NCBI GenBank assembly: GCA_040905445.1
Contig: JBBDRN010000043.1
Location: forward strand, 479-64,478
From: Phycisphaeraceae bacterium
GTDB taxonomy: Bacteria > Planctomycetota > Phycisphaerae > Phycisphaerales > Phycisphaeraceae
Reading direction: 5' to 3'
Length of the DNA: 64,000 nucleotides
Shown here: piece after piece, positions 3,226-61,251 of the stretch
Position numbering within the stretch: the stretch's first letter is position 1
Layout of the letters: every line of letters starts with the position of its first letter
The notes under the pieces: generated by a model
What the model saw: only the letters and a program-made list of their open reading frames with translations
What the model was told of the DNA's origin: nothing
Databases searched by the model: none
Made by a program: the position numbers and the translations under genes

Positions 3226-3258
3226 AAAATTCAAAATTCAGAATTCAAAATTCAGAAA
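3226..3258. repeat. AT-rich heptamer array (AATTCAR), copy 1 of conserved 25-mer AAAATTCAGAATTCAAAATTCAGAA
   Basis: Read directly; starts 8 nt after the stop at 3218. Confidence 0.9.
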
Positions 3259-3355
3259 CCGCGAAGGCGCGAAGGAAGCGAAGTTGTTGTGATAAGACAG
3301 CTCGCCTCCTCAAGATCTTTCCTCGTGCCCTCGCCCCCTTCGCCCCTTCGCGGTT
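3257..3355. repeat. inverted repeat of the AACCGCGAAGGCGCGAAGG word family
   Basis: Arms 3257-3275 and 3337-3355 are complementary at 18/19 positions. Lies between convergent genes. Confidence 0.85.
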
Positions 3356-24159: not shown

Positions 24160-24194
24160 AAATTAAAAATTCAGAATTCAAAATTCAGAATTGA
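24160..24194. repeat. AT-rich heptamer array, copy 2 of the same 25-mer
   Basis: Read directly; lies just after the thiG stop. Confidence 0.9.
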
Positions 24195-24245: not shown

Positions 24246-24506
24246 ATGAGCACGCAAACCAGCGACGTGGCACGCACCAGCGGGCGGGCGATGGGCCCGA
24301 AGACCATCATCAAGCTCGTGGCGACAGCGATTGTGGCGCTGCTCGTGCTGATCGTGATCATTCAGAACACGGAGCACGTCGACACGCACGTGTTGTTCTG
24401 GGAATTCAACATGCCGCGCGTCGTGCTGCTGTTCCTGACGCTGGTCGTCGGCTTCGCGATGGGGATCACCGCCGCGGTGATGTACACATCGCCGCGGCGC
24501 CGTTGA
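24246..24506 (+). CDS. LapA-domain (DUF1049) small inner-membrane protein
   Basis: 86 aa with two TM segments flanking ...QNTEHVDTHVLFWEFNMP..., typical of the LapA domain. Confidence 0.6.
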   Translation: MSTQTSDVARTSGRAMGPKTIIKLVATAIVALLVLIVIIQNTEHVDTHVLFWEFNMPRVVLLFLTLVVGFAMGITAAVMYTSPRRR

Positions 24507-24546: not shown

Positions 24547-24750
24547 CAGCCCCGGCAGGGGCTGCGGGCGGTAGCCACGGGTGAAGCGCAGCGGAACCCG
24601 TGGAACGTGGCGACGAAGTCCTCCTGCCCCGGCAGGGGCAGAGGCGACGTCCTCCGCCCCTGCCGGGGCGGGACGCTGCGGTCAACCCCTTTCCACGGGT
24701 TCCGCTGCGCTTCACCCGTGGCTACAGGCTGGTCGCCCCTCCGGGGCTGC
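24547..24750. repeat. composite structured element: two ~58-nt inverted units around a 13-bp hairpin
   Basis: CCACGGGTGAAGCGCAGCGGAACCCGTGG (24575-24603) and its exact reverse complement (24693-24721). Inner hairpin 24627-24639 / 24656-24668. Confidence 0.9.
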
Positions 24751-29793: not shown

Positions 29794-29846
29794 GGCGTGG
29801 CTCCGGTGGCTGATGGCTGGTGGGTAATGGCTGGTGGCTACGCAAC

Positions 29847-31790: not shown

Positions 31791-31924
31791 GGCGTGATCT
31801 CCAGGGGAAAATTGACGATGGACAAGTGACAATGCACCAACGCGAGCCGGCATCGGCCAACGGTCATCCGCCTCGCGTTGTCCCTTGTGCATTGTGCATT
31901 GGGCATTGTGCGTTCTGCCTCGCC

Positions 31925-39166: not shown

Positions 39167-39248
39167 AACCGCGAAGAGGCGAAGGACGCGAAGTGCGCGA
39201 AGAAACAGAAACCACCATCCCTCCGCACTCTTCGCTGCTTCGCGGTTT
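39167..39248. repeat. inverted repeat of the AACCGCGAAG word family
   Basis: Left arm GAACCGCGAAGAGGCGAAGGACGCGAAG, right arm CTTCGCTGCTTCGCGGTT; imperfect. Confidence 0.75.
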
Positions 39249-42066: not shown

Positions 42067-43050
42067 TTACGTCAACGCCTGGCGCAGCACATGCCGCAGG
42101 GCGTCGATGGCCGGGCGATCGGTGCGCGCCAGCGCGTAACGCGCGTGCTGCTGGCGACATCCCGAGGCCAGGGCGGCGAGGTGGCGGCTGATGCCGCGCG
42201 CGTACGCCCCGGCCACCTGGCGGGGGTCCGCGGCGTGGGTCCGCCCGGTCTCCGGGTCGCGCAGGCGGTGGGGCCCGGGCGGCAGGCGGGCGATGTCGAG
42301 CTCCGCCGGGCTGAGCACCTGCAACACGATCACCCCCCCACCACCTCCCCCGCCACCGGCTGGGCGGCCGCGCCCCGGCCCGCCGCGCCGGTGACGTGCG
42401 AACGCGTCGAGGCATGCGGCCGGGTCATCGAGGAGGTCGGAGACGACGGCGAGCACCGTGCCCGCCCGCAGACGGCCGGCCAACTCGCGCAGCGCCCGTG
42501 GCAGGTCGCCCGGGCCGGGTGGGTCGTCGGCCTGCTCGATGGCCCGGCAGAGGCGGTGGGCGTGGGGCCAGCCGGGGCCGGGCGGCAGGTGGTCGACGAG
42601 TCCATCACCCGCCAGCGCCAGCCCCGCTCGATCGCCCTGGCGCGCGGCGATCAGGACGAGGGCGGCCGCGAGCTCGCGGGCGTGGGTGAGTTTCGATTTC
42701 GGATTTCGGATTTCGGATTTCGGATGGGAGCGGGCGGGAGTGGCGGGGGTGGCGGGGGCGGGGTAGGCCATGGAGGCGGAGATGTCGAGCAGGACGAGGA
42801 GGGTGAGGTCCGACTCGCGGCGATGACGGCGGAGGTAGAGGCGGTCGGTGCGGGCGTAGCGCTTCCAGTCGATGCCCGCCGCGTCGTCGCCGGGGCTGTA
42901 GGGGCGGTAGTCATGGAACTCGGCGCCGGGGCCGAGGTGGCGCGAGCGATGCTCGCCGGTGAGCAGGGTGTCGACGAGACGGTGGGCGGTGAGGGTGAGG
43001 CCGGCGAGGCCGTGGAGGCGGGGGAGGATTTCTGATTTCTGATTTCTCAT
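42067..43050 (-). CDS. DUF58 (vWA-like, MoxR-associated family) protein with in-frame repeat insertions
   Basis: GEHRSRHLGPGAEFHDYRPYSPGDDAAGIDWKRYART and LLVLLDISASM motifs. Start (43050 or 43083) lies in or next to a heptamer array. Confidence 0.8.
   Translation of the reverse strand: MRNQKSEILPRLHGLAGLTLTAHRLVDTLLTGEHRSRHLGPGAEFHDYRPYSPGDDAAGIDWKRYARTDRLYLRRHRRESDLTLLVLLDISASMAYPAPATPATPARSHPKSEIRNPKSKLTHARELAAALVLIAARQGDRAGLALAGDGLVDHLPPGPGWPHAHRLCRAIEQADDPPGPGDLPRALRELAGRLRAGTVLAVVSDLLDDPAACLDAFARHRRGGPGRGRPAGGGGGGGGVIVLQVLSPAELDIARLPPGPHRLRDPETGRTHAADPRQVAGAYARGISRHLAALASGCRQQHARYALARTDRPAIDALRHVLRQALT
42691..42723. repeat. ATTTCGG heptamer array (about 4.5 copies) inside DUF58 coding sequence
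   Basis: Encodes [11 protein letters not shown] in frame. Confidence 0.9.
42736..42762. repeat. GGTGGCGGG nonamer array inside DUF58 coding sequence
   Basis: Encodes [10 protein letters not shown] in frame. Confidence 0.85.
43027..43050. repeat. ATTTCTG heptamer array at the DUF58 start codon
   Basis: GATTTCTGATTTCTGATTTCTCAT; the CAT is candidate start Met-12. Confidence 0.85.
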
Positions 43051-43995: not shown

Positions 43996-44012
43996 TCGCC
44001 GCGATGCCGGGA

Positions 44013-44229
44013 TAACCGCGAAGGCGCGAAGAAGGCGAAGAGGGCACGAAGGAAGGCGGAGAGGCGGGGGGCGGGCAGGGCCACAAAGACACAGAGGCGG
44101 AGGGGAGTGAAGCGGAGGACGGCCCCCGCCTCCTTCCTGCTTTGCCCTCTGCCTCCGGCCTCTGTGCCTCTGTGGTTTCTTGTCCCCCTCCCGCCTTCGT
44201 GCCCTCTTCGCTTCGCGCCTTCGCGGTTA
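44013..44229. repeat. 217-nt composite imperfect palindrome (AACCGCGAAGG / GAGGGCACGAAGG / CACAGAGGC words)
   Basis: The outer 19 nt are perfectly complementary (44013-44031 / 44211-44229), followed by a further 17-nt perfect block. Lies between convergent tatD and purB. Confidence 0.9.
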
Positions 44230-44233
44230 ACCG

Positions 44234-45682
44234 TCACACGCTCAGCGCCGGCTCGTAGCCCATCACCTCGGCGTAGCGCTGGCGGATCGGCCCGGCGACC
44301 TCCTCGATGAAGGTGTCGACCTGCTGCGGGGCGCGGCCGATGAACTGCGCGGGTTCCGCGACGGCGTACACGTCCACTCCCGCAAACGCCGGGTCGGCCG
44401 CGAGGCGGTCGAGCAGGTCGTTGGGCTGCGCTTCTTCCTTGACGCGCTGGGCGGCGGCCTGGCTGTGCGTGCGGATCACCTCGTGCAGCGTCTGCCGATC
44501 CCCCCCCTGCTGCACCGCGGCCATGAGGATGTTCTCCGTGGCCATGAAAGGCAGCTCGGCGCGAAGGTTGTTCTCGACGGTCTTCTCGTAGACGACCAGG
44601 CCCGAACTGACGTTGACGAGCAGGTCGAGCACGCCGTCGAGCGCGAGGAAGGGCTCGGGCAGCGTCAGCCGGCGGGCGCTCGAGTCGTCAAGCGTGCGCT
44701 CCATCCACTGCTCGGCGGCGGTGACGAAGGGGGTCTGTGTCATGCCGATGACGAAGCGGGACAGGCCGCAGATCCGCTCGCAGCGCATCGGGTTGCGCTT
44801 GTAGGCCATCGCCGACGAGCCGATCTGGCTCTCCTCGAATGGCTCCTCGAGCTCCTTGCGCGACGCGAGCAGGCGCACGTCGGTGGCGAACTTCTGCGCG
44901 GCGGCGGCGGCGGCGGCGAGGCTGGCGGCGACCAGGCCGTCGACCACGCGCGGGTAGGTCTGTCCGGTGACGATGAATCGGCGGTCCGGGTCCCAGCCCA
45001 TTTTTTCGGTGACGAGGCGATCGAGCTGCTCGACTTTCGCGTGCGACGCGGGCGTGTTGCCGCCGAAGAGGGCGAGGAAGGAGGCCTGCGTGCCGGTGGT
45101 GCCCTTGACGCCGCGGAAGCGGAGCGAATCGAGGCGATGCTCGAGCTCCTCGAGGGCGAGCGACAGGTCGTAGGCCCACAGCGCCGCCCGCTTGCCGACG
45201 GTTGTGGGCTGGGCGGGCTGGAGGTGGGTGAACGCAAGCGTGGGCAGGTGCTTGTGCCGGTCGGCGAACGTCGCGAGGCGGTCGATGGCGGTGGCGAGCT
45301 TCTGCGTCACGAGCTTGAGCGCGTCGCGGATCTGGATCAGCTCGGTGTTGCAGTTGACGAACTGGCTGGTCGCGCCGAGGTGGATGATGGGGCGGGCACC
45401 GGGCGCGGCGTCGCCCAGAGCGTGGACGTGGGCCATCACGTCGTGGCGCAGCTTCTTTTCGTAGTCGGCCGCCACCTCGTAGTCGATGTCCTGCTGGTGG
45501 TCGCGCAGGGCGGCAAGCTGCTCGTCGGTGATGGTCAGGCCCAGTTCCTGCTGCGCCTCGGCCAGCGCGAGCCAGAGCCGGCGCCAGGTGGTGAACTTGG
45601 TGCGCGGCGAGAAGATGCGCTGCATCTCGGGCGAGGCGTTGCGCTGGGCGAGCGGGGAGGTGTATCGCTGGTCGTCTTGCAT
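44234..45682 (-). CDS. purB: adenylosuccinate lyase
   Basis: 482 aa. YTSPLAQRNASPEM, HLGATSQFVN, GSSAMAYKRNPMRCE signature. The upstream part of ORF 44234..46921 was rejected. Confidence 0.93.
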   Translation of the reverse strand: MQDDQRYTSPLAQRNASPEMQRIFSPRTKFTTWRRLWLALAEAQQELGLTITDEQLAALRDHQQDIDYEVAADYEKKLRHDVMAHVHALGDAAPGARPIIHLGATSQFVNCNTELIQIRDALKLVTQKLATAIDRLATFADRHKHLPTLAFTHLQPAQPTTVGKRAALWAYDLSLALEELEHRLDSLRFRGVKGTTGTQASFLALFGGNTPASHAKVEQLDRLVTEKMGWDPDRRFIVTGQTYPRVVDGLVAASLAAAAAAAQKFATDVRLLASRKELEEPFEESQIGSSAMAYKRNPMRCERICGLSRFVIGMTQTPFVTAAEQWMERTLDDSSARRLTLPEPFLALDGVLDLLVNVSSGLVVYEKTVENNLRAELPFMATENILMAAVQQGGDRQTLHEVIRTHSQAAAQRVKEEAQPNDLLDRLAADPAFAGVDVYAVAEPAQFIGRAPQQVDTFIEEVAGPIRQRYAEVMGYEPALSV

Positions 45683-50964: not shown

Positions 50965-50995
50965 GAATTCAAAATTCAGAATTCAAAATTCAGAA
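50965..50995. repeat. AT-rich heptamer array, copy 3 of the same 25-mer
   Basis: Read directly; lies between the DUF255 gene stop and the comEC start. Confidence 0.9.
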
Positions 50996-51027
50996 TGCGG
51001 GGAAATGGTGAGCAGCGCGCGCCGACG

Positions 51028-53439: not shown

Positions 53440-53465
53440 GATTTCGGATTTCGGATTTCGGATTG
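53440..53465. repeat. ATTTCGG heptamer array (about 3.5 copies), intergenic flhG / DUF255 gene
   Basis: Read directly. Confidence 0.9.
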
Positions 53466-53519: not shown

Positions 53520-54458
53520 CTACGTGGTGCGGCGGAGCCAGGCGGTCATGCGGTTGAGCAGTGAGCCGGTGCGCGGGGCGACGGCGTGACGGTCGATGCG
53601 GTGGGCGAGCCGGTGCATGCAGACGCCGGCGGGGCTGCGCGGCTGCTCGAGGACGAAGAGCTGTCGCTGGCGCACGGCCGCGGGCACCACCGGGTCGTGC
53701 GGGATGTAGCCGGCGAAGCGCGGCGTGAAGCCGAGGAACCGCCGGCAGACGGCGGCGACGCGCTCGTAGACGGAGCGGGCCTCGCGCTCGTCGGCGGCCT
53801 GGTTGACCAGGATGCGCGCGGCGGGCGGGTCCTGGCCGGCCTGGGCACGCTTGCGCGTGAGCGTCTTGATCAGCGCGTAGGCGTCGGTGATGGCGGTCGG
53901 CTCCGGCGTCGTGACGACGATGACTTCGTCGACGGCGACCAGGAAGCCGAGCACGTTGGGCCCGATGCCGGCACCGGTATCGATGATGAGCAGGTCGGCG
54001 GCCTGTTCGAGCAGGTGGAGCTGGTCGAGGAGGCGGTCGCGTTCGCTGTCGTTGAGCGCCGCCATCTGCGCGAGGCCCGACGCGCCGGGGATGAGGTGGA
54101 AGCCGCCGGGCGCGGGCGTGAGGACCTGGTGCAGTGACTTGCGGCCGGCGACGACGTGGGCGAGGTGGCCGGTGGGCGTGATGTTGCACAGGACGTCGGC
54201 ATTGGCGGTGCCGAGGTCGGCGTCGAGGAGAACGACGCGCCGGCCCATGGCGGCGAGCTGGGCGGCGAGGTTGACGCTGAGGGTGGTCTTGCCCACGCCA
54301 CCCTTGCCGCTGGTGATGGCGAGGGTGCGGGCGCCGGCGGGGGTGGATTTCGGATTTCGGATTTCGGATTTCGGAGGGGGCGCGGGGTCGGCGATGGCGG
54401 CGCGGGGTTGCGCCTGCTCGACCATTGCTCGAAGGGCGGTGGCCTGGTCGGTGGTCAT
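53520..54458 (-). CDS. flhG: flagellar number regulator FlhG/FleN (MinD/ParA ATPase)
   Basis: N-terminal DQATALR activator motif. Deviant Walker [13 protein letters not shown]. 4-nt overlap with the flhF stop. Confidence 0.88.
54345..54374. repeat. ATTTCGG heptamer array (about 4 copies) inside flhG coding sequence
   Basis: Encodes [10 protein letters not shown] in frame. Confidence 0.9.
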
Positions 54459-55936
54459 GACTTAAGGACTCCCTCTCCGAGCATCAGGGCGGCGAGGCGG
54501 TCGGCGCGGCCGGGCTCGATCTCGTGTGGTACTTCCTGCCCCGTGGTGACGTAGCTGAGGCGTTTGCGAACCTTGCGCATGACATTGAGCACCACGCCGA
54601 ACGTCACCGCCTCGTCGAGCTTCGTGAAGATGACGCGGTCCGCGGGGATACGGGCGAAGCGCTCGATGGTGTCTTCGAGGACCGACTGGGTGCAGGTCGA
54701 GGAGAGGACGAGGTGGACTTCGTCGGCGTCAGCGGCCTTGATGAAGCGGGCCAGCTCGTCCAGCCGCGGGTCGTCACGCTGCGACCGCCCGGCCGTATCG
54801 ATGAGCACCGCGTCGCAGTCGGCGAACTCCTGCACCGCCCGCTGCATCTCGTCGGGGCTCGTGACGACGCGCAGCGGCACGCCGATGATCCCCGCGTAGG
54901 TGCGGAGCTGGTCCACGGCGGCGATGCGGTAGGTGTCGATGGTGATCAGCGCGACCTTGAGTTGGCGCTTGAGCTTGAAGGTGGCGGCGAGCTTGGCGAT
55001 GGTGGTCGTCTTGCCCACGCCGGTCGGGCCGATCAGCGCGATCGTGCGCGGGCCTCGCTTGACGGCGGGGGTGGCGGCGGCGGCGTCGGACTCCGGATCG
55101 TCGGTGGGCATGAGCTGGGCGACGGCCTTCATGACGGCGCGGCGGCAGGCGTGCGCGTCCTCGAGTTCGCTCTGCTCCAGGCTCTGACGCACGTTGTCGA
55201 CGATTTCGCCCGCGAGTTCCTCGGCGACCTCCTGCTCGAGCAGTGACAGGTATTGATCGAACAGCTTATCAGGCATGTCGGAACGCGCCGCCGTGTCGCC
55301 GGTGGTGCGCTGCCGGCGGTCCTGGCTCATGCGGGCGACCATGCGCTTGATGGCGCGCATCTCGTCGGTGATCTGCCGGGGGTCGAAGAGGGCGGGCGAT
55401 TGTTGGTTGCTGGCTTCTGATTGCTGATTGGGGGCGACCGCGGGGGGGGACTCATTGCCCGGAGCGCTGACGTGCTGCGCCTCGCGGACACGGACGGGGT
55501 GGGGGGTGGGATCCGCGTCCGTCGAGGCCAGGGTCCACGGATTGGCATCCGTGGGCTTTGGCGTACTGACATCAGCGCGCGCGGCGGCGTAGGTGCGGCG
55601 GATGAGGTCGCCGGCGAGCTCGGGCCGTGCAGGTTGCGAGGCGGTTGAAGCCCATGGGTCGGCCTCCATGGGCTTGGCCGGCGACCGGCGCTGCTGGGCG
55701 CGCCGCGCCTCGGCGAGCAGCTCGCGGCGGCGGTCGTCCTGGGTCTTGCGCTGCTTGCGGCCGAGCTCGCGGCCGTCGGCGGCCGTGACCTCGACGTACG
55801 TGCGTGCCCCGACGCCGAGGATCCCGCCATGCTTGTAGCTGCGCGTGTGCAGGATCACGGCGTTGGCGCCGAGCAGGCGACGGACCTCGCCCAGCGCCTC
55901 GTGCATGGTCCTGGCGGTGACGGTCTTCAGGTTCAA
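54455..55936 (-). CDS. flhF: flagellar biosynthesis GTPase FlhF (SRP-type)
   Basis: B-domain N-terminus ([19 protein letters not shown]). G-domain [27 protein letters not shown]. Confidence 0.9.
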
Positions 55937-58188
55937 ATCTGCACCCCTTCTCGTCGTGGCATGTTGACTTCCGTGTCCTCACCAAGCTGGACCAGGCCCA
56001 GCGACTCGACCTCCACACCCTTGCTCACCTCGTTGTACCCGAGCACCGCGGCCGTCGGGAGGTGCGGCTCGATGAGCTTGCGCAGGGCGGCGCGGACCTG
56101 CGGCGAGGCGAGCACGACGGGGTGGTGCCCGGCGCCGATCAATCGCTCGAGCTCGCCGAGCACCGCCCGCGTGATGCGGTTGCCGACGGCGGGCGGCATG
56201 GTCATGCTCGTGCCCTGGTCGCTGCGTTCAATATAACCGCTGATGCGATCCTCGATGGCGGGGTCGAGGCTGACGCAGTACAGCCGGGTCGTTGGCATCC
56301 CCCCCCCACCGCCACCGGCTGCGTGGCCGTTGCCGTTGCCGTTGCCGTGCATGTCGCCCTCGGTGGGCTGCTCGGTGACGATGTACTGGCTGCAGATGGT
56401 GCGGCGGAGCGCGTTGCGCACGTATTCGGTGAGCACGTCGAGGTCCCGGGTGCGTGACGTCCAGTCGCCGAGCGTCTCGACGACGGTTTCGAGGTCGCGG
56501 ATGGGCACGCGTTCGCGCAGCAGGTTCTGGAGCACCTTCTGCATCTCGGCGGGACGCAGGGCGGGGCTGTCGCCGCCGAGCACCTCTTCGCAGAGCTTGG
56601 GGGCCTTGTCCTTGAGCTGGGCGATGAGGTTGTTGGTCTCCTCCCGGGAGAGCAGTTCGTGGGCGTGGCTGCGGACAAGCTCGGTGAGGTGGGTGGCGAG
56701 CACGCTGGCGGCGTCGACGACGGTGTAGTTGAGCGCCTCGGCGCGCTGCTTCTGGCCGGCGTCGATCCAGACGGCCTCGAGTCCGAATGCCGGCTCGCGC
56801 GTGCGCGTGCCGGGCAGGGGCTCGGAGGCGAGGCCGCTGTCCATGGCCATGAACTGCCCGGGGAAGACCTGGCCGGAGGCGATGGCGTTGCCGCGGAGCT
56901 TGACGCGGTATTCGTGGGGGGCGAGCTGCATGTTGTCGCGGATGCGCACCGGGGGCATGACGCAGCCGAGCTCGCCGGCAAGCTGGCGCCGGATGGCGCT
57001 GATGCGGTCGAGCAGGTCGCCGCCCTGGGATTGATCGACGAGGCGGACCAGGGCGTAGCCGACCTCGAGCTCGAGCGTGTCGACCTGGATGGCCTGCTCG
57101 ATGGGGGCAGGCTCGGCGGCGTCGGCGTCGGCCTGGTCCTTGTCGCGCTTGGCCTGGGAGGCGTCGGCGTCGCGGCGGTCGCCGGCCCGTTTGAGGATGA
57201 GACTGAGCACGCCGAGGCACCCGGCGAGCAGGAGCATCGGGAGCATCGGGAGCCCGGTGAACGCCATGAGCACGAGGAAGCCGGCGGTGATGGCGAGCGC
57301 CGCGTGGCGGGCGGTGAGCTGGCGGGTGATCTCGGTGCCGAGGTCCTGGCGGCTGGAGGAGCGGGTGACGATCAGGCCCGCGGCGAGCGAGACGACGAAC
57401 GCGGGCAACTGCGAAACCAGCCCGTCGCCGATCGTGAGCATCGTGAAGACCTGGACGGACTCGACGAAGGACCAGCCCTTGATGGCCATGCCGATGGCGA
57501 AGCCGCCGATGAGGTTGATGACGGTGATGATGATGCCGGCGATGGCGTCGCCACGGACGAACTTGGCGGCACCGTCCATGGCGCCGTAGAAGTCGGCCTC
57601 CTGGGAGATGCGTTCGCGTCGCCCCTTGGCCTCCTGCTCGTTGATGAGCCCGGCGTTCAAGTCCGCGTCGATGGCCATCTGCTTGCCGGGCATCGCATCG
57701 AGGGTGAAGCGCGCGGCGACTTCGCTGATGCGCGTCGCACCCTTGGTGATGACGACAAACTGCACGATGATGAGGATGACGAACAGGATGCCGCCGACGA
57801 CGGGCGACGCGCCGGCGACGAACTCGGCGAAGGCCTCGATGACCCGGCCGGCGACGGCGGTGGCCTGCTCGGGCGTCGCGGCGTCGGCGGTGAGGATCAT
57901 GCGCGTGGTGGCGATGTTGAGCACGAGACGGAAGAGCGTCGTGGCCAGCAGCAGCGAGGGGAAGCCGGAGAAATCGAGCGGGCTCTCGACGAACAGCGTG
58001 GTCAGCAGAATGACGGCCGCGAGAGCGAGGTTGGCGGCGATGAGCACGTCCATGACGGCCGGCGGCATGGGCACGACGATGACGCCGAGCAGCCCGATGC
58101 AGACGATGGGCAGCAGCAGCGACCGGTAACGGCGCGCGCGCTCGGCCCAGGCGGGGGTGAGCAGCGGGTTGTTGTTGGCGGTGGGCAT
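55933..58188 (-). CDS. flhA: flagellar export apparatus protein FlhA
   Basis: Conserved FlhA TM region (PSLLLATTLFRLVLNIATTRMIL, GAMDGAAKFVRGDAIAG) and cytoplasmic domain. ATG 58188 is preferred because TTG 58209 lies inside a repeat. Confidence 0.95.
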   Translation of the reverse strand: MPTANNNPLLTPAWAERARRYRSLLLPIVCIGLLGVIVVPMPPAVMDVLIAANLALAAVILLTTLFVESPLDFSGFPSLLLATTLFRLVLNIATTRMILTADAATPEQATAVAGRVIEAFAEFVAGASPVVGGILFVILIIVQFVVITKGATRISEVAARFTLDAMPGKQMAIDADLNAGLINEQEAKGRRERISQEADFYGAMDGAAKFVRGDAIAGIIITVINLIGGFAIGMAIKGWSFVESVQVFTMLTIGDGLVSQLPAFVVSLAAGLIVTRSSSRQDLGTEITRQLTARHAALAITAGFLVLMAFTGLPMLPMLLLAGCLGVLSLILKRAGDRRDADASQAKRDKDQADADAAEPAPIEQAIQVDTLELEVGYALVRLVDQSQGGDLLDRISAIRRQLAGELGCVMPPVRIRDNMQLAPHEYRVKLRGNAIASGQVFPGQFMAMDSGLASEPLPGTRTREPAFGLEAVWIDAGQKQRAEALNYTVVDAASVLATHLTELVRSHAHELLSREETNNLIAQLKDKAPKLCEEVLGGDSPALRPAEMQKVLQNLLRERVPIRDLETVVETLGDWTSRTRDLDVLTEYVRNALRRTICSQYIVTEQPTEGDMHGNGNGNGHAAGGGGGGMPTTRLYCVSLDPAIEDRISGYIERSDQGTSMTMPPAVGNRITRAVLGELERLIGAGHHPVVLASPQVRAALRKLIEPHLPTAAVLGYNEVSKGVEVESLGLVQLGEDTEVNMPRREGVQI

Positions 58189-58202
58189 GGTGCGGGAGCC
58201 GG

Positions 58203-58245
58203 GAGTCAAGGAAGTCAGGAGTCAGGGAAGTCGGGGAAGTTGGAG
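58203..58245. repeat. left inverted repeat flanking the four-helix-bundle gene (GGAAGTCAGG words)
   Basis: AAGTCAGGAGTCAGGGAAGTCG plus about 9 more nt recur inverted at 58671-58727. Confidence 0.85.
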
Positions 58246-58262
58246 TGGTTGCGGAAGGTTGG

Positions 58263-58664
58263 TTAGCGGCTGGCGCGGATGGCGGAGGCGTAACGGTGGA
58301 GCAGGCGGCTGATTTCCTCCAAGTCGCCCATGGGTGAAGTCTCGTTGAGGTAGCCGAGGTCCTGCGCGAGAATGAAGTAGTAGCGCACTTCCTCGAGTGA
58401 GCCTTCGGCAATGTTGAGGAAGCGGGCTTTGTCGGCGCGGCTCTGCTTGCGAAATCCCTCGGCGATGTTGGCGGGGATGGAGACGGCGGCGCGTCGCAAC
58501 TGAGCGGTGAGGCCATACATCTCGTGCTTTGGGAAGCTCGCGGTGAATCGGTAGATGCAAAGTGCCATGGCGTGAGCCTTTCGCCACACCACGAGGTCCT
58601 GAAAGCTACGCGCGGCGCGCCTTTCCGATCCGCTGCTGGTCTGACTCGCCTTCTCATCGTTCAT
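58263..58664 (-). CDS. four-helix-bundle protein (TIGR02436; 23S rRNA intervening-sequence protein / Avd-like family)
   Basis: 133 aa. FQDLVVWRKAHAMALCIYRFTASFPKHEMYGLTAQLRRAAVSIPANIAEGF...FLNIAEGSLEEVRYY is the family hallmark. Confidence 0.85.
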   Translation of the reverse strand: MNDEKASQTSSGSERRAARSFQDLVVWRKAHAMALCIYRFTASFPKHEMYGLTAQLRRAAVSIPANIAEGFRKQSRADKARFLNIAEGSLEEVRYYFILAQDLGYLNETSPMGDLEEISRLLHRYASAIRASR

Positions 58665-58670
58665 CGTCAA

Positions 58671-58727
58671 CTCCTGACTCCCCACTTCCTCGACTTCCCT
58701 GACTCCTGACTTCCCTGACTTCCGTCT
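58671..58727. repeat. right inverted repeat flanking the four-helix-bundle gene
   Basis: The reverse complement contains the same 22-mer AAGTCAGGAGTCAGGGAAGTCG. Confidence 0.85.
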
Positions 58728-58732
58728 CCCCT

Positions 58733-59803
58733 TCACGCGCTGCGGCGTTCGCCGAGGCGATACACGTAGGCGAGGATCTCGGCGACGGCGGTGTAGTGCT
58801 CGGGTGGGACCTCCTGGCCGATCTCCACGCCAGCGTAGAGCGCCTGGGCCAGGGGCTTGCGCTCGACGATCGGGATGCCGTGCGTCGCGGCGATCTGTCG
58901 GATGCGCATCGCCAGGAAGTCCGCCCCCTTGGCGATGACCTTCGGGGCCCGCATCGTCTCGCTGTCGTAACGCAGCGCCACGGCATAATGCGTCGGGTTG
59001 GTGACGATGACGTCGGCGGAAGGCACCTGCTGAGCGATGCGCTGCATGGCGATCTGTCGCGCGACCCGCGTGCGGCGCTGCTTGACGAGCGGATCGCCTT
59101 CCATGCGCTTCATCTCCTCCTTGACCTCCTGCTTGCTCATCTTGAGGTCTCGCTCGTGCTGCCAACGCTGGAAGAGGTAGTCAAGGATGGCGAGCACGAT
59201 CAACAGGATCACGAGCTGGATCGTGACCGCGAAGACGATCTCACTCGCGGCGGTGAACGCGGGCGCGGTATCGAGCTGCCCGAGGCGCATGATGCGCGGC
59301 AGCTCCTGGTAGATGAGAATCACCGCCAGGCCGAGAATCACCGCGACCTTGGCCATGCTCATGACGAAGCGCATGCCGGCCCGCGCGTTGACGAGGTTCT
59401 TGACGCCCTTGAGCGGCGAGAGCTTGCTGAACTTGGGCGTGAGCGGCTCGAGCGTGATCATGAAGCCGACCTGCGCGACGTTGATCAACAGCACCACGGC
59501 GAAGATGGTGAGCATGACGGGCATGAGCGTGCCCGCCACGAGGCGCAGCGCGAAGTGCGTGATCGCCTCGAGCTCATCGAGGCGCGCGAGGTTGGACGCG
59601 TGCGCGCCGGTGAGCATGGCGTGCGCGGCGACGTGCAGCGAGTCCCAGACACGCCGGCCGAGGAAGAAGAACATCACGACCGCCGCGAGCAGCGCGAAGG
59701 CCGCGGTCAGGTCAGTGGATCGCGCCACCTGCCCCTGCTCGCGCGCCTGCTCGCGCTTGCGCGGCGTCGCCGGCTCGGTTTTTTCGAAGTTGTCTTCAGC
59801 CAT
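58733..59803 (-). CDS. flhB: flagellar export apparatus protein FlhB
   Basis: EKTEPATPRKREQAREQGQVARS N-terminus, four TM segments, NPTHYAVAL autocleavage motif. Confidence 0.93.
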   Translation of the reverse strand: MAEDNFEKTEPATPRKREQAREQGQVARSTDLTAAFALLAAVVMFFFLGRRVWDSLHVAAHAMLTGAHASNLARLDELEAITHFALRLVAGTLMPVMLTIFAVVLLINVAQVGFMITLEPLTPKFSKLSPLKGVKNLVNARAGMRFVMSMAKVAVILGLAVILIYQELPRIMRLGQLDTAPAFTAASEIVFAVTIQLVILLIVLAILDYLFQRWQHERDLKMSKQEVKEEMKRMEGDPLVKQRRTRVARQIAMQRIAQQVPSADVIVTNPTHYAVALRYDSETMRAPKVIAKGADFLAMRIRQIAATHGIPIVERKPLAQALYAGVEIGQEVPPEHYTAVAEILAYVYRLGERRSA

Positions 59804-59832
59804 GGATCCGGGTCGTCATGGAAGCAGTCACC

Positions 59833-59911
59833 AATGAACACGCATGGACACGAATATGGAGAGGACTATCCCCGTGTTTTTCCCGAATTTTGTGTTCGTT
59901 CGTGTTCATTT
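59833..59911. repeat. inverted repeat (AATGAACACG word) in the fliR-flhB spacer
   Basis: 10-bp perfect outer stem 59833-59842 / 59902-59911, with partial complementarity further in. Confidence 0.7.
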
Positions 59912-59914
59912 TTG

Positions 59915-61048: not shown

Positions 61049-61077
61049 GGGTGCGGATCCGCAAGGCGTTACCAAAG

Positions 61078-61245
61078 ATGCACAGAGACACGGAGGGGAC
61101 GGCGGAGCTGGCTTGGCGTGTTATTCGGGTTTTTTTGTGTGTATCGGGGCTGCGCGAAGCCGCGAGCGGCCGCCCGGCATCGATCTGTGTTCATCCGTGT
61201 TCATCTGTGACTGCTTTCTTCGTCCTCTCTGTGTCTCTGTGTCTC
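61078..61245. repeat. inverted repeat (CACAGAGACAC word) plus GTGTTCATC word in the fliP-fliQ spacer
   Basis: Arms at about 61078-61101 and 61222-61245, 11 nt perfect then partial. GTGTTCATCCGTGTTCATCTGTG at 61183-61211. Confidence 0.75.
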
Positions 61246-61251
61246 GCGCTT

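Follow-up and report, generated by a model that had tools for sequence, protein, structure and literature searches.

The 544 nt spacer between flhB and flhA in a 64 000 nt stretch of Phycisphaeraceae DNA (the whole of which is referred to here as the window) is probably an inserted hairpin cassette of the type of the 23S rRNA intervening sequences (IVSs) that carry an open reading frame (ORF), in this case riding in an mRNA operon. The cassette consists of a gene for a 133-residue four-helix-bundle (4HB) protein and of two inverted arms of short tandem units that bracket it. It is a small, selfish-looking element, one of what looks to be a widespread and barely described class found in the gaps between operon genes. 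The window has a G+C content of 70% and matches a contig of the Phycisphaeraceae metagenome-assembled genome (MAG) GCA_040879345.1, in which flhA (contig L001, 4661-6916) corresponds to window positions 58188-55933. The flagellar export operon is encoded on the minus strand in the order fliO-fliP-fliQ-fliR-flhB-[133-aa ORF]-flhA-flhF-flhG. FlhB (PF01312) is encoded upstream of the 4HB ORF and FlhA (PF00771) downstream, all on the same strand, in agreement with the initial annotation of the locus, which had placed the ORF between these two genes. The 5' arm begins 2 nt past the flhB TGA stop (58735-58733) and the 3' arm ends 5 nt before the flhA ATG, so that the spacer is wholly taken up by the cassette. 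No promoter-like or terminator-like site was found in 58000-59000 by a consensus scan for sigma-70 promoters and intrinsic terminators, and no Rfam family, rRNA included, was matched in the window.

Profile searches assigned the ORF to the 23S_rRNA_IVP family, as had been proposed, with scores above the cutoffs for both PF05635 (E 2e-36, 124.8 bits, cutoff 33.8; the sole Pfam match) and TIGR02436 (E 1.1e-34, 119 bits, cutoff 24). The R-x3-S-x3-N-x2-E motif described for the 4HB family (PMC3936711) was located in the translation as RRAAVSIPANIAEG. The best solved relative is the pentameric XCC0516 (PDB entry 2gsc; E 3.6e-22), and by homology to this protein the ORF product is predicted to be a conserved pentamer-type bundle. 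More than 7700 homologues were retrieved at E < 1e-10. The G+C content at third codon positions (GC3) is 0.79 for the ORF and 0.89-0.93 for flhB, flhA and flhF; the codon composition of the ORF is atypical, or foreign, for this operon. The protein is under purifying selection, with proportions of nonsynonymous (pN) and synonymous (pS) differences of 0.23 and 0.79, respectively, in a comparison with the copy in a relative (contig L088). The corresponding pS for flhB is 0.43, but the comparison is uninformative on whether the two cassettes are orthologous, because the flhB value is near its ceiling at a GC3 of about 0.92 and that of the 4HB gene is saturated. A reading as a defence system was rejected, as the ORF had no match in PADLOC, and a phage origin was rejected for the lack of close relatives of the protein among viral contigs.

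The arms are 50 nt each and are 90% complementary. The initial annotation had described a perfect inverted repeat of 22 nt within one of about 31 nt; the exact 22-mer was confirmed and occurs only twice in the 64 kb [58212-58233(+) and 58691-58712(-)], while the longer figure proved too short. The 5' arm is composed of irregular tandem units of 7-9 nt (GGAAGTCA / GGGAAGTCA / GGAGTCA / GGGAAGTCG). Tandem Repeats Finder reported periods of 7, 9 and 16 at 58670-58723, and a simple period-7 detector passed over these arms because of the irregularity of the units. The RNA of the minus strand from 58180 to 58745 was folded and gave a terminal stem around the whole ORF, with a minimum free energy (MFE) of -238.6 kcal/mol and a z score of -5.25, none of 100 shuffled sequences being as good. 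In a second fold 66 pairs enclosed the ORF and extended to 58178, so that the flhB stop and the flhA start meet at the base of the stem. The sense transcript is thus predicted to form a stem of about 50-66 bp around the ORF, in which the AGGAG of the ORF (58671-58675) is paired and masked; a long stem of this kind had been suggested in the initial annotation. The spacing from AGGAG to ATG is the same in the Nostoc and Trichormus cassettes described below. The coordinates are given in Table 1.

Table 1. Features of the cassette and of the two genes that flank it (window coordinates)
Feature	Position	Strand	Description	Basis
4HB gene (23S_rRNA_IVP / TIGR02436 family)	58263..58664	minus	133 aa; motif RRAAVSIPANIAEG	Profile matches
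5' arm (upstream in mRNA sense)	58681..58730	minus	Purine-rich	Repeat search; tandem-repeat search; paired in MFE structure
3' arm (downstream)	58194..58243	minus	Pyrimidine-rich complement of the 5' arm	Paired in MFE structure
Presumed Shine-Dalgarno (SD) sequence of the 4HB ORF	58671..58675	minus	Last AGGAG of the array, 6 nt before the ATG	Inferred from sequence
Full predicted transcript stem-loop	58178..58746	minus	66 bp enclosing the ORF; MFE -240.0 kcal/mol	ViennaRNA
flhB	58733..59803	minus	356 aa	PF01312 match on called gene; ORF listing
flhA	55933..58188	minus	751 aa; ATG at 58188	PF00771 match on called gene

Arms of low-complexity tandem units are prone to mis-assembly, and a chance or assembly artefact was therefore considered. 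The 22-mer with up to three mismatches had an expected chance count of 0 (100 shuffles). The 591 nt region is 100% identical in four independent records, among them the window, the NCBI MAG contig and two independent Logan assemblies, and the same architecture is present in finished plasmids of isolates. On the strength of the identical records and the isolate plasmids an artefact was rejected as barely conceivable.

The flhB-flhA junctions of relatives were read on contigs of FlhB homologues (120 listed, 56-100% identical), which yielded nine distinct junctions, including that of the window. Two are empty, with spacers of 13 nt (L089; FlhB 65% identical) and 28 nt (L099; 64%). As these empty junctions show, the window cassette is an insertion into an otherwise 13-28 nt stop-to-start spacer. 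An insertion or small mobile cassette had been raised as an option in the initial annotation, to be followed up by a search for empty sites in relatives, and it is supported by the two that were found. The other seven junctions are occupied; among them are at least five arm sequences that are unrelated to one another, and cargo of three kinds. In L088 (FlhB 83%) the cargo is a 4HB gene of 134 aa, 65% identical to that of the window, with (GGGGAAGTC)n-type arms. In L100 (FlhB 63%, on a 5.5 Mb contig) a 4HB gene lies between (GCCATTA)n and (TAATGGC)n arrays, and a TAATG in the downstream array provides the overlapping stop of the 4HB gene and start of flhA. L097 and L098 hold a GxxExxY / PDDEXK_3 gene (TIGR04256, E 1e-40) between inverted arms that are made up of units of the CACAGATGAA or ACGCAAATG type, and L091 and L092 hold ORF-less hairpins of unrelated sequence. 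The flhB-flhA junction is an insertion hotspot.

An occupancy of seven in nine distinct genomes could also mean that the element has been domesticated, with a host-selected stem, with or without the protein, that sets the flhB:flhA ratio or stabilizes the transcript. The predicted stem brings the flhB stop beside the flhA start, and an aid to stability or translational coupling has been proposed for the heptamer hairpins of the cyanobacterial short tandemly repeated repetitive (STRR) type between hupS and hupL (PMC2670836). The junction content is not conserved, however, which makes a domesticated regulator unlikely: it varies between 4HB genes, GxxExxY genes, unrelated ORF-less hairpins and nothing, and the arm sequences are unrelated. 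The same cassettes lie between unrelated genes elsewhere, and the ORF has a foreign codon composition. We consider this explanation quite improbable.

As a separate observation, the outermost termini of four of the flhB-flhA elements (L097 3588-4022, L098 3585-4030, L091 6088-6225 and L100 3578-4004) are similar, (TT)AGCCRY ... RYGGCT(AA), in elements with unrelated internal units. These termini could represent a target or recognition motif.

The bracket characterizes the 4HB family and is not confined to the window locus. For this analysis 80 metagenomic 4HB loci were retrieved and the flanks of 54 were tested for duplex formation against dinucleotide shuffles; an earlier control, in which the upstream flank of one locus was paired with the downstream flank of another, was inflated by shared units and was replaced by the shuffles. 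The flank-to-flank duplex energy had z < -3 in 31 of the 54 loci and z < -5 in 20, and stems of 30-76 bp enclosing the ORF were obtained in all ten loci that were folded, the window included. Each arm is a tandem array, in most cases with a period of 7. The upstream array typically has an SD-like unit (AGGAGTT, AGGAGTC, AGAAGTT); the downstream array is its reverse complement and often begins before the ORF has ended, in its last codons. A complementary partner array was seen for each of at least seven unit types (AGGAGTY, GGAAGTC, GAAGCTG, GGTAGAT, GGTAGGT, AGCCNTC, ACTGAGA, GCCATTA). The same layout, with co-directional neighbours, is found in the finished isolate plasmids pNPUN02 of Nostoc punctiforme PCC 73102 and C of Trichormus variabilis ATCC 29413, with (AGGAGTC/AGAAGTC)n arms close to the window units. 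A GxxExxY gene is also present in a Bacteroides finegoldii plasmid, where it lies between radA and the gene for an FAD-dependent protein and has arms of CACAGAGGA units that match at 27 of 30 positions. According to Rfam, none of 40 related loci is situated in rRNA (a single tRNA was the only match). The arrangement had been taken to be exceptional; this was overstated for the family, which occurs with the same bracket between protein genes, isolate plasmids included.

In the plasmid of Fusobacteria bacterium ZRK30 (L103, 600-1130) a GxxExxY gene has, instead of inverted arms, direct repeats some 45 nt long on its flanks (CAGATTTAATCCGTGTACCTAT...), and these may be a target duplication.

Whether the arms belong to the gene or to a pre-existing hairpin decides between the travelling cassette and a rival in which STRR-like tandem-unit hairpins arise independently in spacers, 4HB and GxxExxY genes home into their loops, and the arms are those of the hairpin. 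Many junctions of these operons, and other parts of the window, do hold ORF-less tandem-unit hairpins, and nested hairpins are present at window positions 44008-44234 and in the fliR-flhB spacer of L097. The type of arm unit, however, co-varies with the 4HB phylogeny, with a protein identity of 72% for pairs with the same unit and 52% for pairs with different units. Related 4HB genes in Cyanobacteria, Planctomycetota and other contigs have RGRAGTC arms that are much alike, which suggests that ORF and arms travel together, and among 96 loci the (AGGAGTY)n pattern is almost exclusively found beside 4HB ORFs. Because the unit type tracks the protein tree and RGRAGTC arms recur around the cyanobacterial plasmid relatives, the 4HB ORF and its arms form one coherent evolving unit. 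We regard homing as unlikely to be the explanation here; the two models are compatible, much as autonomous and non-autonomous copies occur together. A purine-rich arm upstream was tried as a sign of polarity linked to the ORF and was dropped. This order says little, since it is the same on both strands of such hairpins and ORF-less ones can be pyrimidine-first (fliP-fliQ in L097).

Homing is supported by arm sequences that recur with different cargo. One arm family is common to the GxxExxY gene of L097 and to a nested hairpin with no ORF that lies 1.1 kb from it (26/29 and 28/35 positions identical), and the 5' arm of the L100 4HB cassette has an exact 22-mer in common with an ORF-less array in L088. 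Several results weigh against the inserted-cassette reading. No target-site duplication is visible at the arm ends and no transposase is present, the 4HB gene being the only ORF of the cassette. No further copy of the GGAAGTC arms was found in the 64 kb window. Among the stem mismatches of 37 loci, G·U (49) was not favoured over A·C (41; p = 0.46), which gives no strand-specific RNA signal, and the arms may thus be kept purely as DNA inverted repeats; in L088 alone there were seven G·U mismatches and one A·C. The promoter scan covered the sigma-70 consensus only. An effect on flhA, like co-transcription with the operon and cleavage by RNase III, is a matter of inference. The role of AGGAG as an SD sequence is presumed, and flhA itself, with its start codon at the base of the predicted stem, has no visible SD-like sequence upstream.

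The arm sequence AAGTCRGGAGTCRGGGAAGTC was also used as a query against genome contigs. It gave four matches in unrelated MAGs, one of them within miaB and none adjoining a 4HB ORF; the source genome was not among the matches. Solo GACTCCTGACTTCC-type arrays, which are of the window arm unit, are intergenic in unrelated MAGs (L004 1960-2000, L005 2760-2920 and L007 830-950). No 4HB ORF adjoins them, and they could be remnants or derivatives that lack the ORF.

Other repeats in the window were recorded alongside the cassette. Three ORF-less hairpins (3257-3355, 39167-39247 and 44010-44232) have in common AACCGCGAAG...CTTCGCGGTT termini and tandem units of the CGCGAAGG type. The third, of 227 nt, is nested or composite and has an MFE of -161.5 kcal/mol, and the hairpin at the flhB-flhA junction of L091 (AGCCACGAAG...) looks to be of the same family as the three. 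Hairpins are also present in the operon spacers 61076-61251 (fliP-fliQ) and 59804-59914 (fliR-flhB). Units of the ATGAACAC type, which form the arms of the GxxExxY cassette in L097, occur in both of these spacers, one of which has CACAGAGACACGGAG arms, a unit type that is also found around a Bacteroides GxxExxY gene (L104). The longest inverted repeat of the window (24547-24610 / 24686-24749) has 64 nt arms that are 83% complementary, contains an inner 23 nt palindrome, has no Rfam match and lies directly downstream of a gene for a small membrane protein (24246-24506).

AT-rich arrays of period 7 were located at 3226-3254 (AAAATTC), 24161-24192 (AATTCAG), 29805-29840 (TGGCTGA), 31885-31911 (TTGTGCA), 42691-42725 (TTTCGGA), 43027-43047 (GATTTCT), 50965-50996 (AATTCAA) and 53440-53464 (GATTTCG). 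By a crude gene map they are mostly intergenic, and several end 13-60 nt before a start codon; similar elements are known from Beggiatoaceae (TAACTGA arrays) and cyanobacteria (STRR elements). A heptamer array, (GAAATCC)x4.4, lies within the coding region of flhG (54345-54375), where it encodes part of the linker from the N-terminal DQAxxLR-type helix to the ATPase domain.

If the spacer is an inserted cassette, it would be transcribed as part of the flagellar export operon, since it has no recognizable promoter or terminator of its own. The stem would then be a substrate of the host RNase III, by analogy with the IVSs of Coxiella, Leptospira and Salmonella, for which this has been shown experimentally. 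A cut would excise the loop that contains the ORF and part the flhB and flhA halves of the message. If the stem were left uncut, translation of the 4HB gene would be confined to the brief time before the 3' arm is transcribed. The arms would restore the adjacency of the flanking sequences at the RNA level, which may be why the host tolerates such insertions both in rRNA helices and at tightly coupled operon junctions. The 4HB protein, a presumably nucleic-acid-binding relative of Avd, probably serves the maintenance or spread of the element rather than flagellar export.

The relationship to Avd raises the alternative that the gene is a remnant or an accessory gene of a diversity-generating retroelement (DGR). 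The ORF does have a weak similarity to Avd models (NF033474, 29 bits; PHROG 3206, E 4e-8), but the NF033474 score of 29.4 bits is far from the Avd equivalog cutoff of 80, and the best solved relative, XCC0516, is not a DGR protein. No reverse transcriptase (RT) was found among the called genes over about 4 kb upstream and 10 kb downstream, which instead encode flagellar export, thioredoxin-domain and competence-type (ComEC-like) proteins, and the lack of any Rfam match in the window also speaks against a DGR. With a score below the cutoff and flagellar neighbours, a DGR was rejected as highly improbable, in line with the initial annotation, which had found no support for one.

A more general proposal, less likely than not to be right, is put forward tentatively: the rRNA IVSs that carry an ORF may be only those members in rRNA of a general class of hairpin cassettes that reside in transcripts and occur across phyla. 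Their arms would be inverted arrays of tandem units of 7-10 nt, drawn from a limited shared vocabulary (AGGAGTC, CACAGAG, CACAGATGAA, GCCATTA and AGCCNTC, among others), and their cargo would be exchangeable, being a 4HB gene, a GxxExxY nuclease-like gene, another hairpin or nothing. They would prefer the stop-to-start spacers of operons because the stem restores the adjacency of the flanks in the RNA, and the 4HB and GxxExxY proteins would maintain or spread the arms. If true, this would resemble the relationship between REP-associated tyrosine transposases (RAYTs) and REPINs, the hairpin-forming doublets of repetitive extragenic palindromic (REP) sequences, and would provide a function for the S23p/IVP family, long an orphan.

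The origin and mobility of rRNA IVSs have been standing questions since the early 1990s, as has the function of the abundant S23p/IVP 4HB proteins. The locus offers a comparative handle on them, with one operon junction in empty, hairpin-only, 4HB and GxxExxY states, recognizable families of arm units and an architecture identical to that of an experimentally processed IVS. It also bears on annotation, as 4HB genes that are passengers in cas, conjugation and flagellar operons can be misread as functional partners through guilt by association.

Several known systems have features in common with the cassette. DGR Avd is a distant homologue from the same pentameric four-helix-bundle superfamily (PMC10053308), whereas the window locus has no RT, template repeat or variable repeat, scores below the Avd cutoff and has a different genomic context. 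Genes of the 23S_rRNA_IVP family have been noted in cas operons, for example between cmr3 and cmr2 in Pleurocapsa (PMC3936711), where a family member is likewise wedged into an unrelated operon; the initial annotation had called the arrangement undescribed, and in this respect it had a precedent. That study inferred a functional association, and flanking inverted arrays and empty sites are not described in it. In a literature search that was not exhaustive we found no description of inverted tandem-unit arms around 4HB or GxxExxY genes outside rRNA; the papers searched likewise gave no link between such genes and STRR-type heptamer hairpins, and no account of alternative cargo at one site. The tandem-unit bracket architecture and the junction hotspot thus appear to be undescribed.

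The cyanobacterial STRR hairpins and the TAACTGA heptamer arrays upstream of start codons in Beggiatoaceae (PMC4679880) are similar to the arms in being hairpin-capable 7 nt tandem units that are intergenic in operons and end beside start codons, but, unlike the window cassette, they carry no gene. REP/REPIN elements with a RAYT provide another parallel, with a single small gene between inverted hairpin-forming repeats and ORF-less copies nearby, as in L097. The cassette gene, however, encodes a four-helix bundle or a small PD-(D/E)XK-like protein and not an HUH/Y1 transposase, and the arms are short tandem units and not a fixed sequence as in REP; dispersal of the window arm type is unproven.

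The closest counterparts are the ORF-bearing 23S IVSs of Coxiella (S23p) and Leptospira, which share with the cassette a PF05635 protein, a size of about 430-540 nt and terminal inverted repeats that form a long stem around the ORF. The Coxiella IVS is 428 nt in length, encodes a 4HB-family (S23p) protein and has terminal inverted repeats that form a 28 bp stem; an AG-rich SD sequence (AGAAGA) is followed by tandem GACAGAT heptamers before the start codon, with a copy number that differs between strains (PMC4990558). It was shown experimentally to be cut in the stem by RNase III, which removes the SD sequence (PMC4990558). The rRNA-IVS-like geometry proposed in the initial annotation agrees with this anatomy, and its interpretation as an IVS-type cassette is supported; taken as a whole, its interpretation is partly supported. 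In both elements a purine-rich SD-like sequence and short tandem repeats directly precede the start codon, with the SD within the stem; in the window the GGAAGTCA / GGAGTCA units run up to the AGGAG in a Coxiella-type arrangement. The differences are that the window cassette lies in the stop-to-start spacer of two protein genes and not in helix 25 or 45 of 23S rRNA, that its arms are 50 nt in length (28 bp in Coxiella) and made wholly of tandem units, and that its ORF is both intact and conserved, in contrast to that of Coxiella, which is in decay and probably untranslated. Cleavage by RNase III, demonstrated for the Coxiella IVS, is predicted for the window cassette. As it is located in an mRNA and flanked by flhB and flhA, it is not a 23S rRNA IVS by definition. 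By analogy it would nevertheless work like an IVS, since it holds every sequence feature of the Coxiella IVS except the host transcript.

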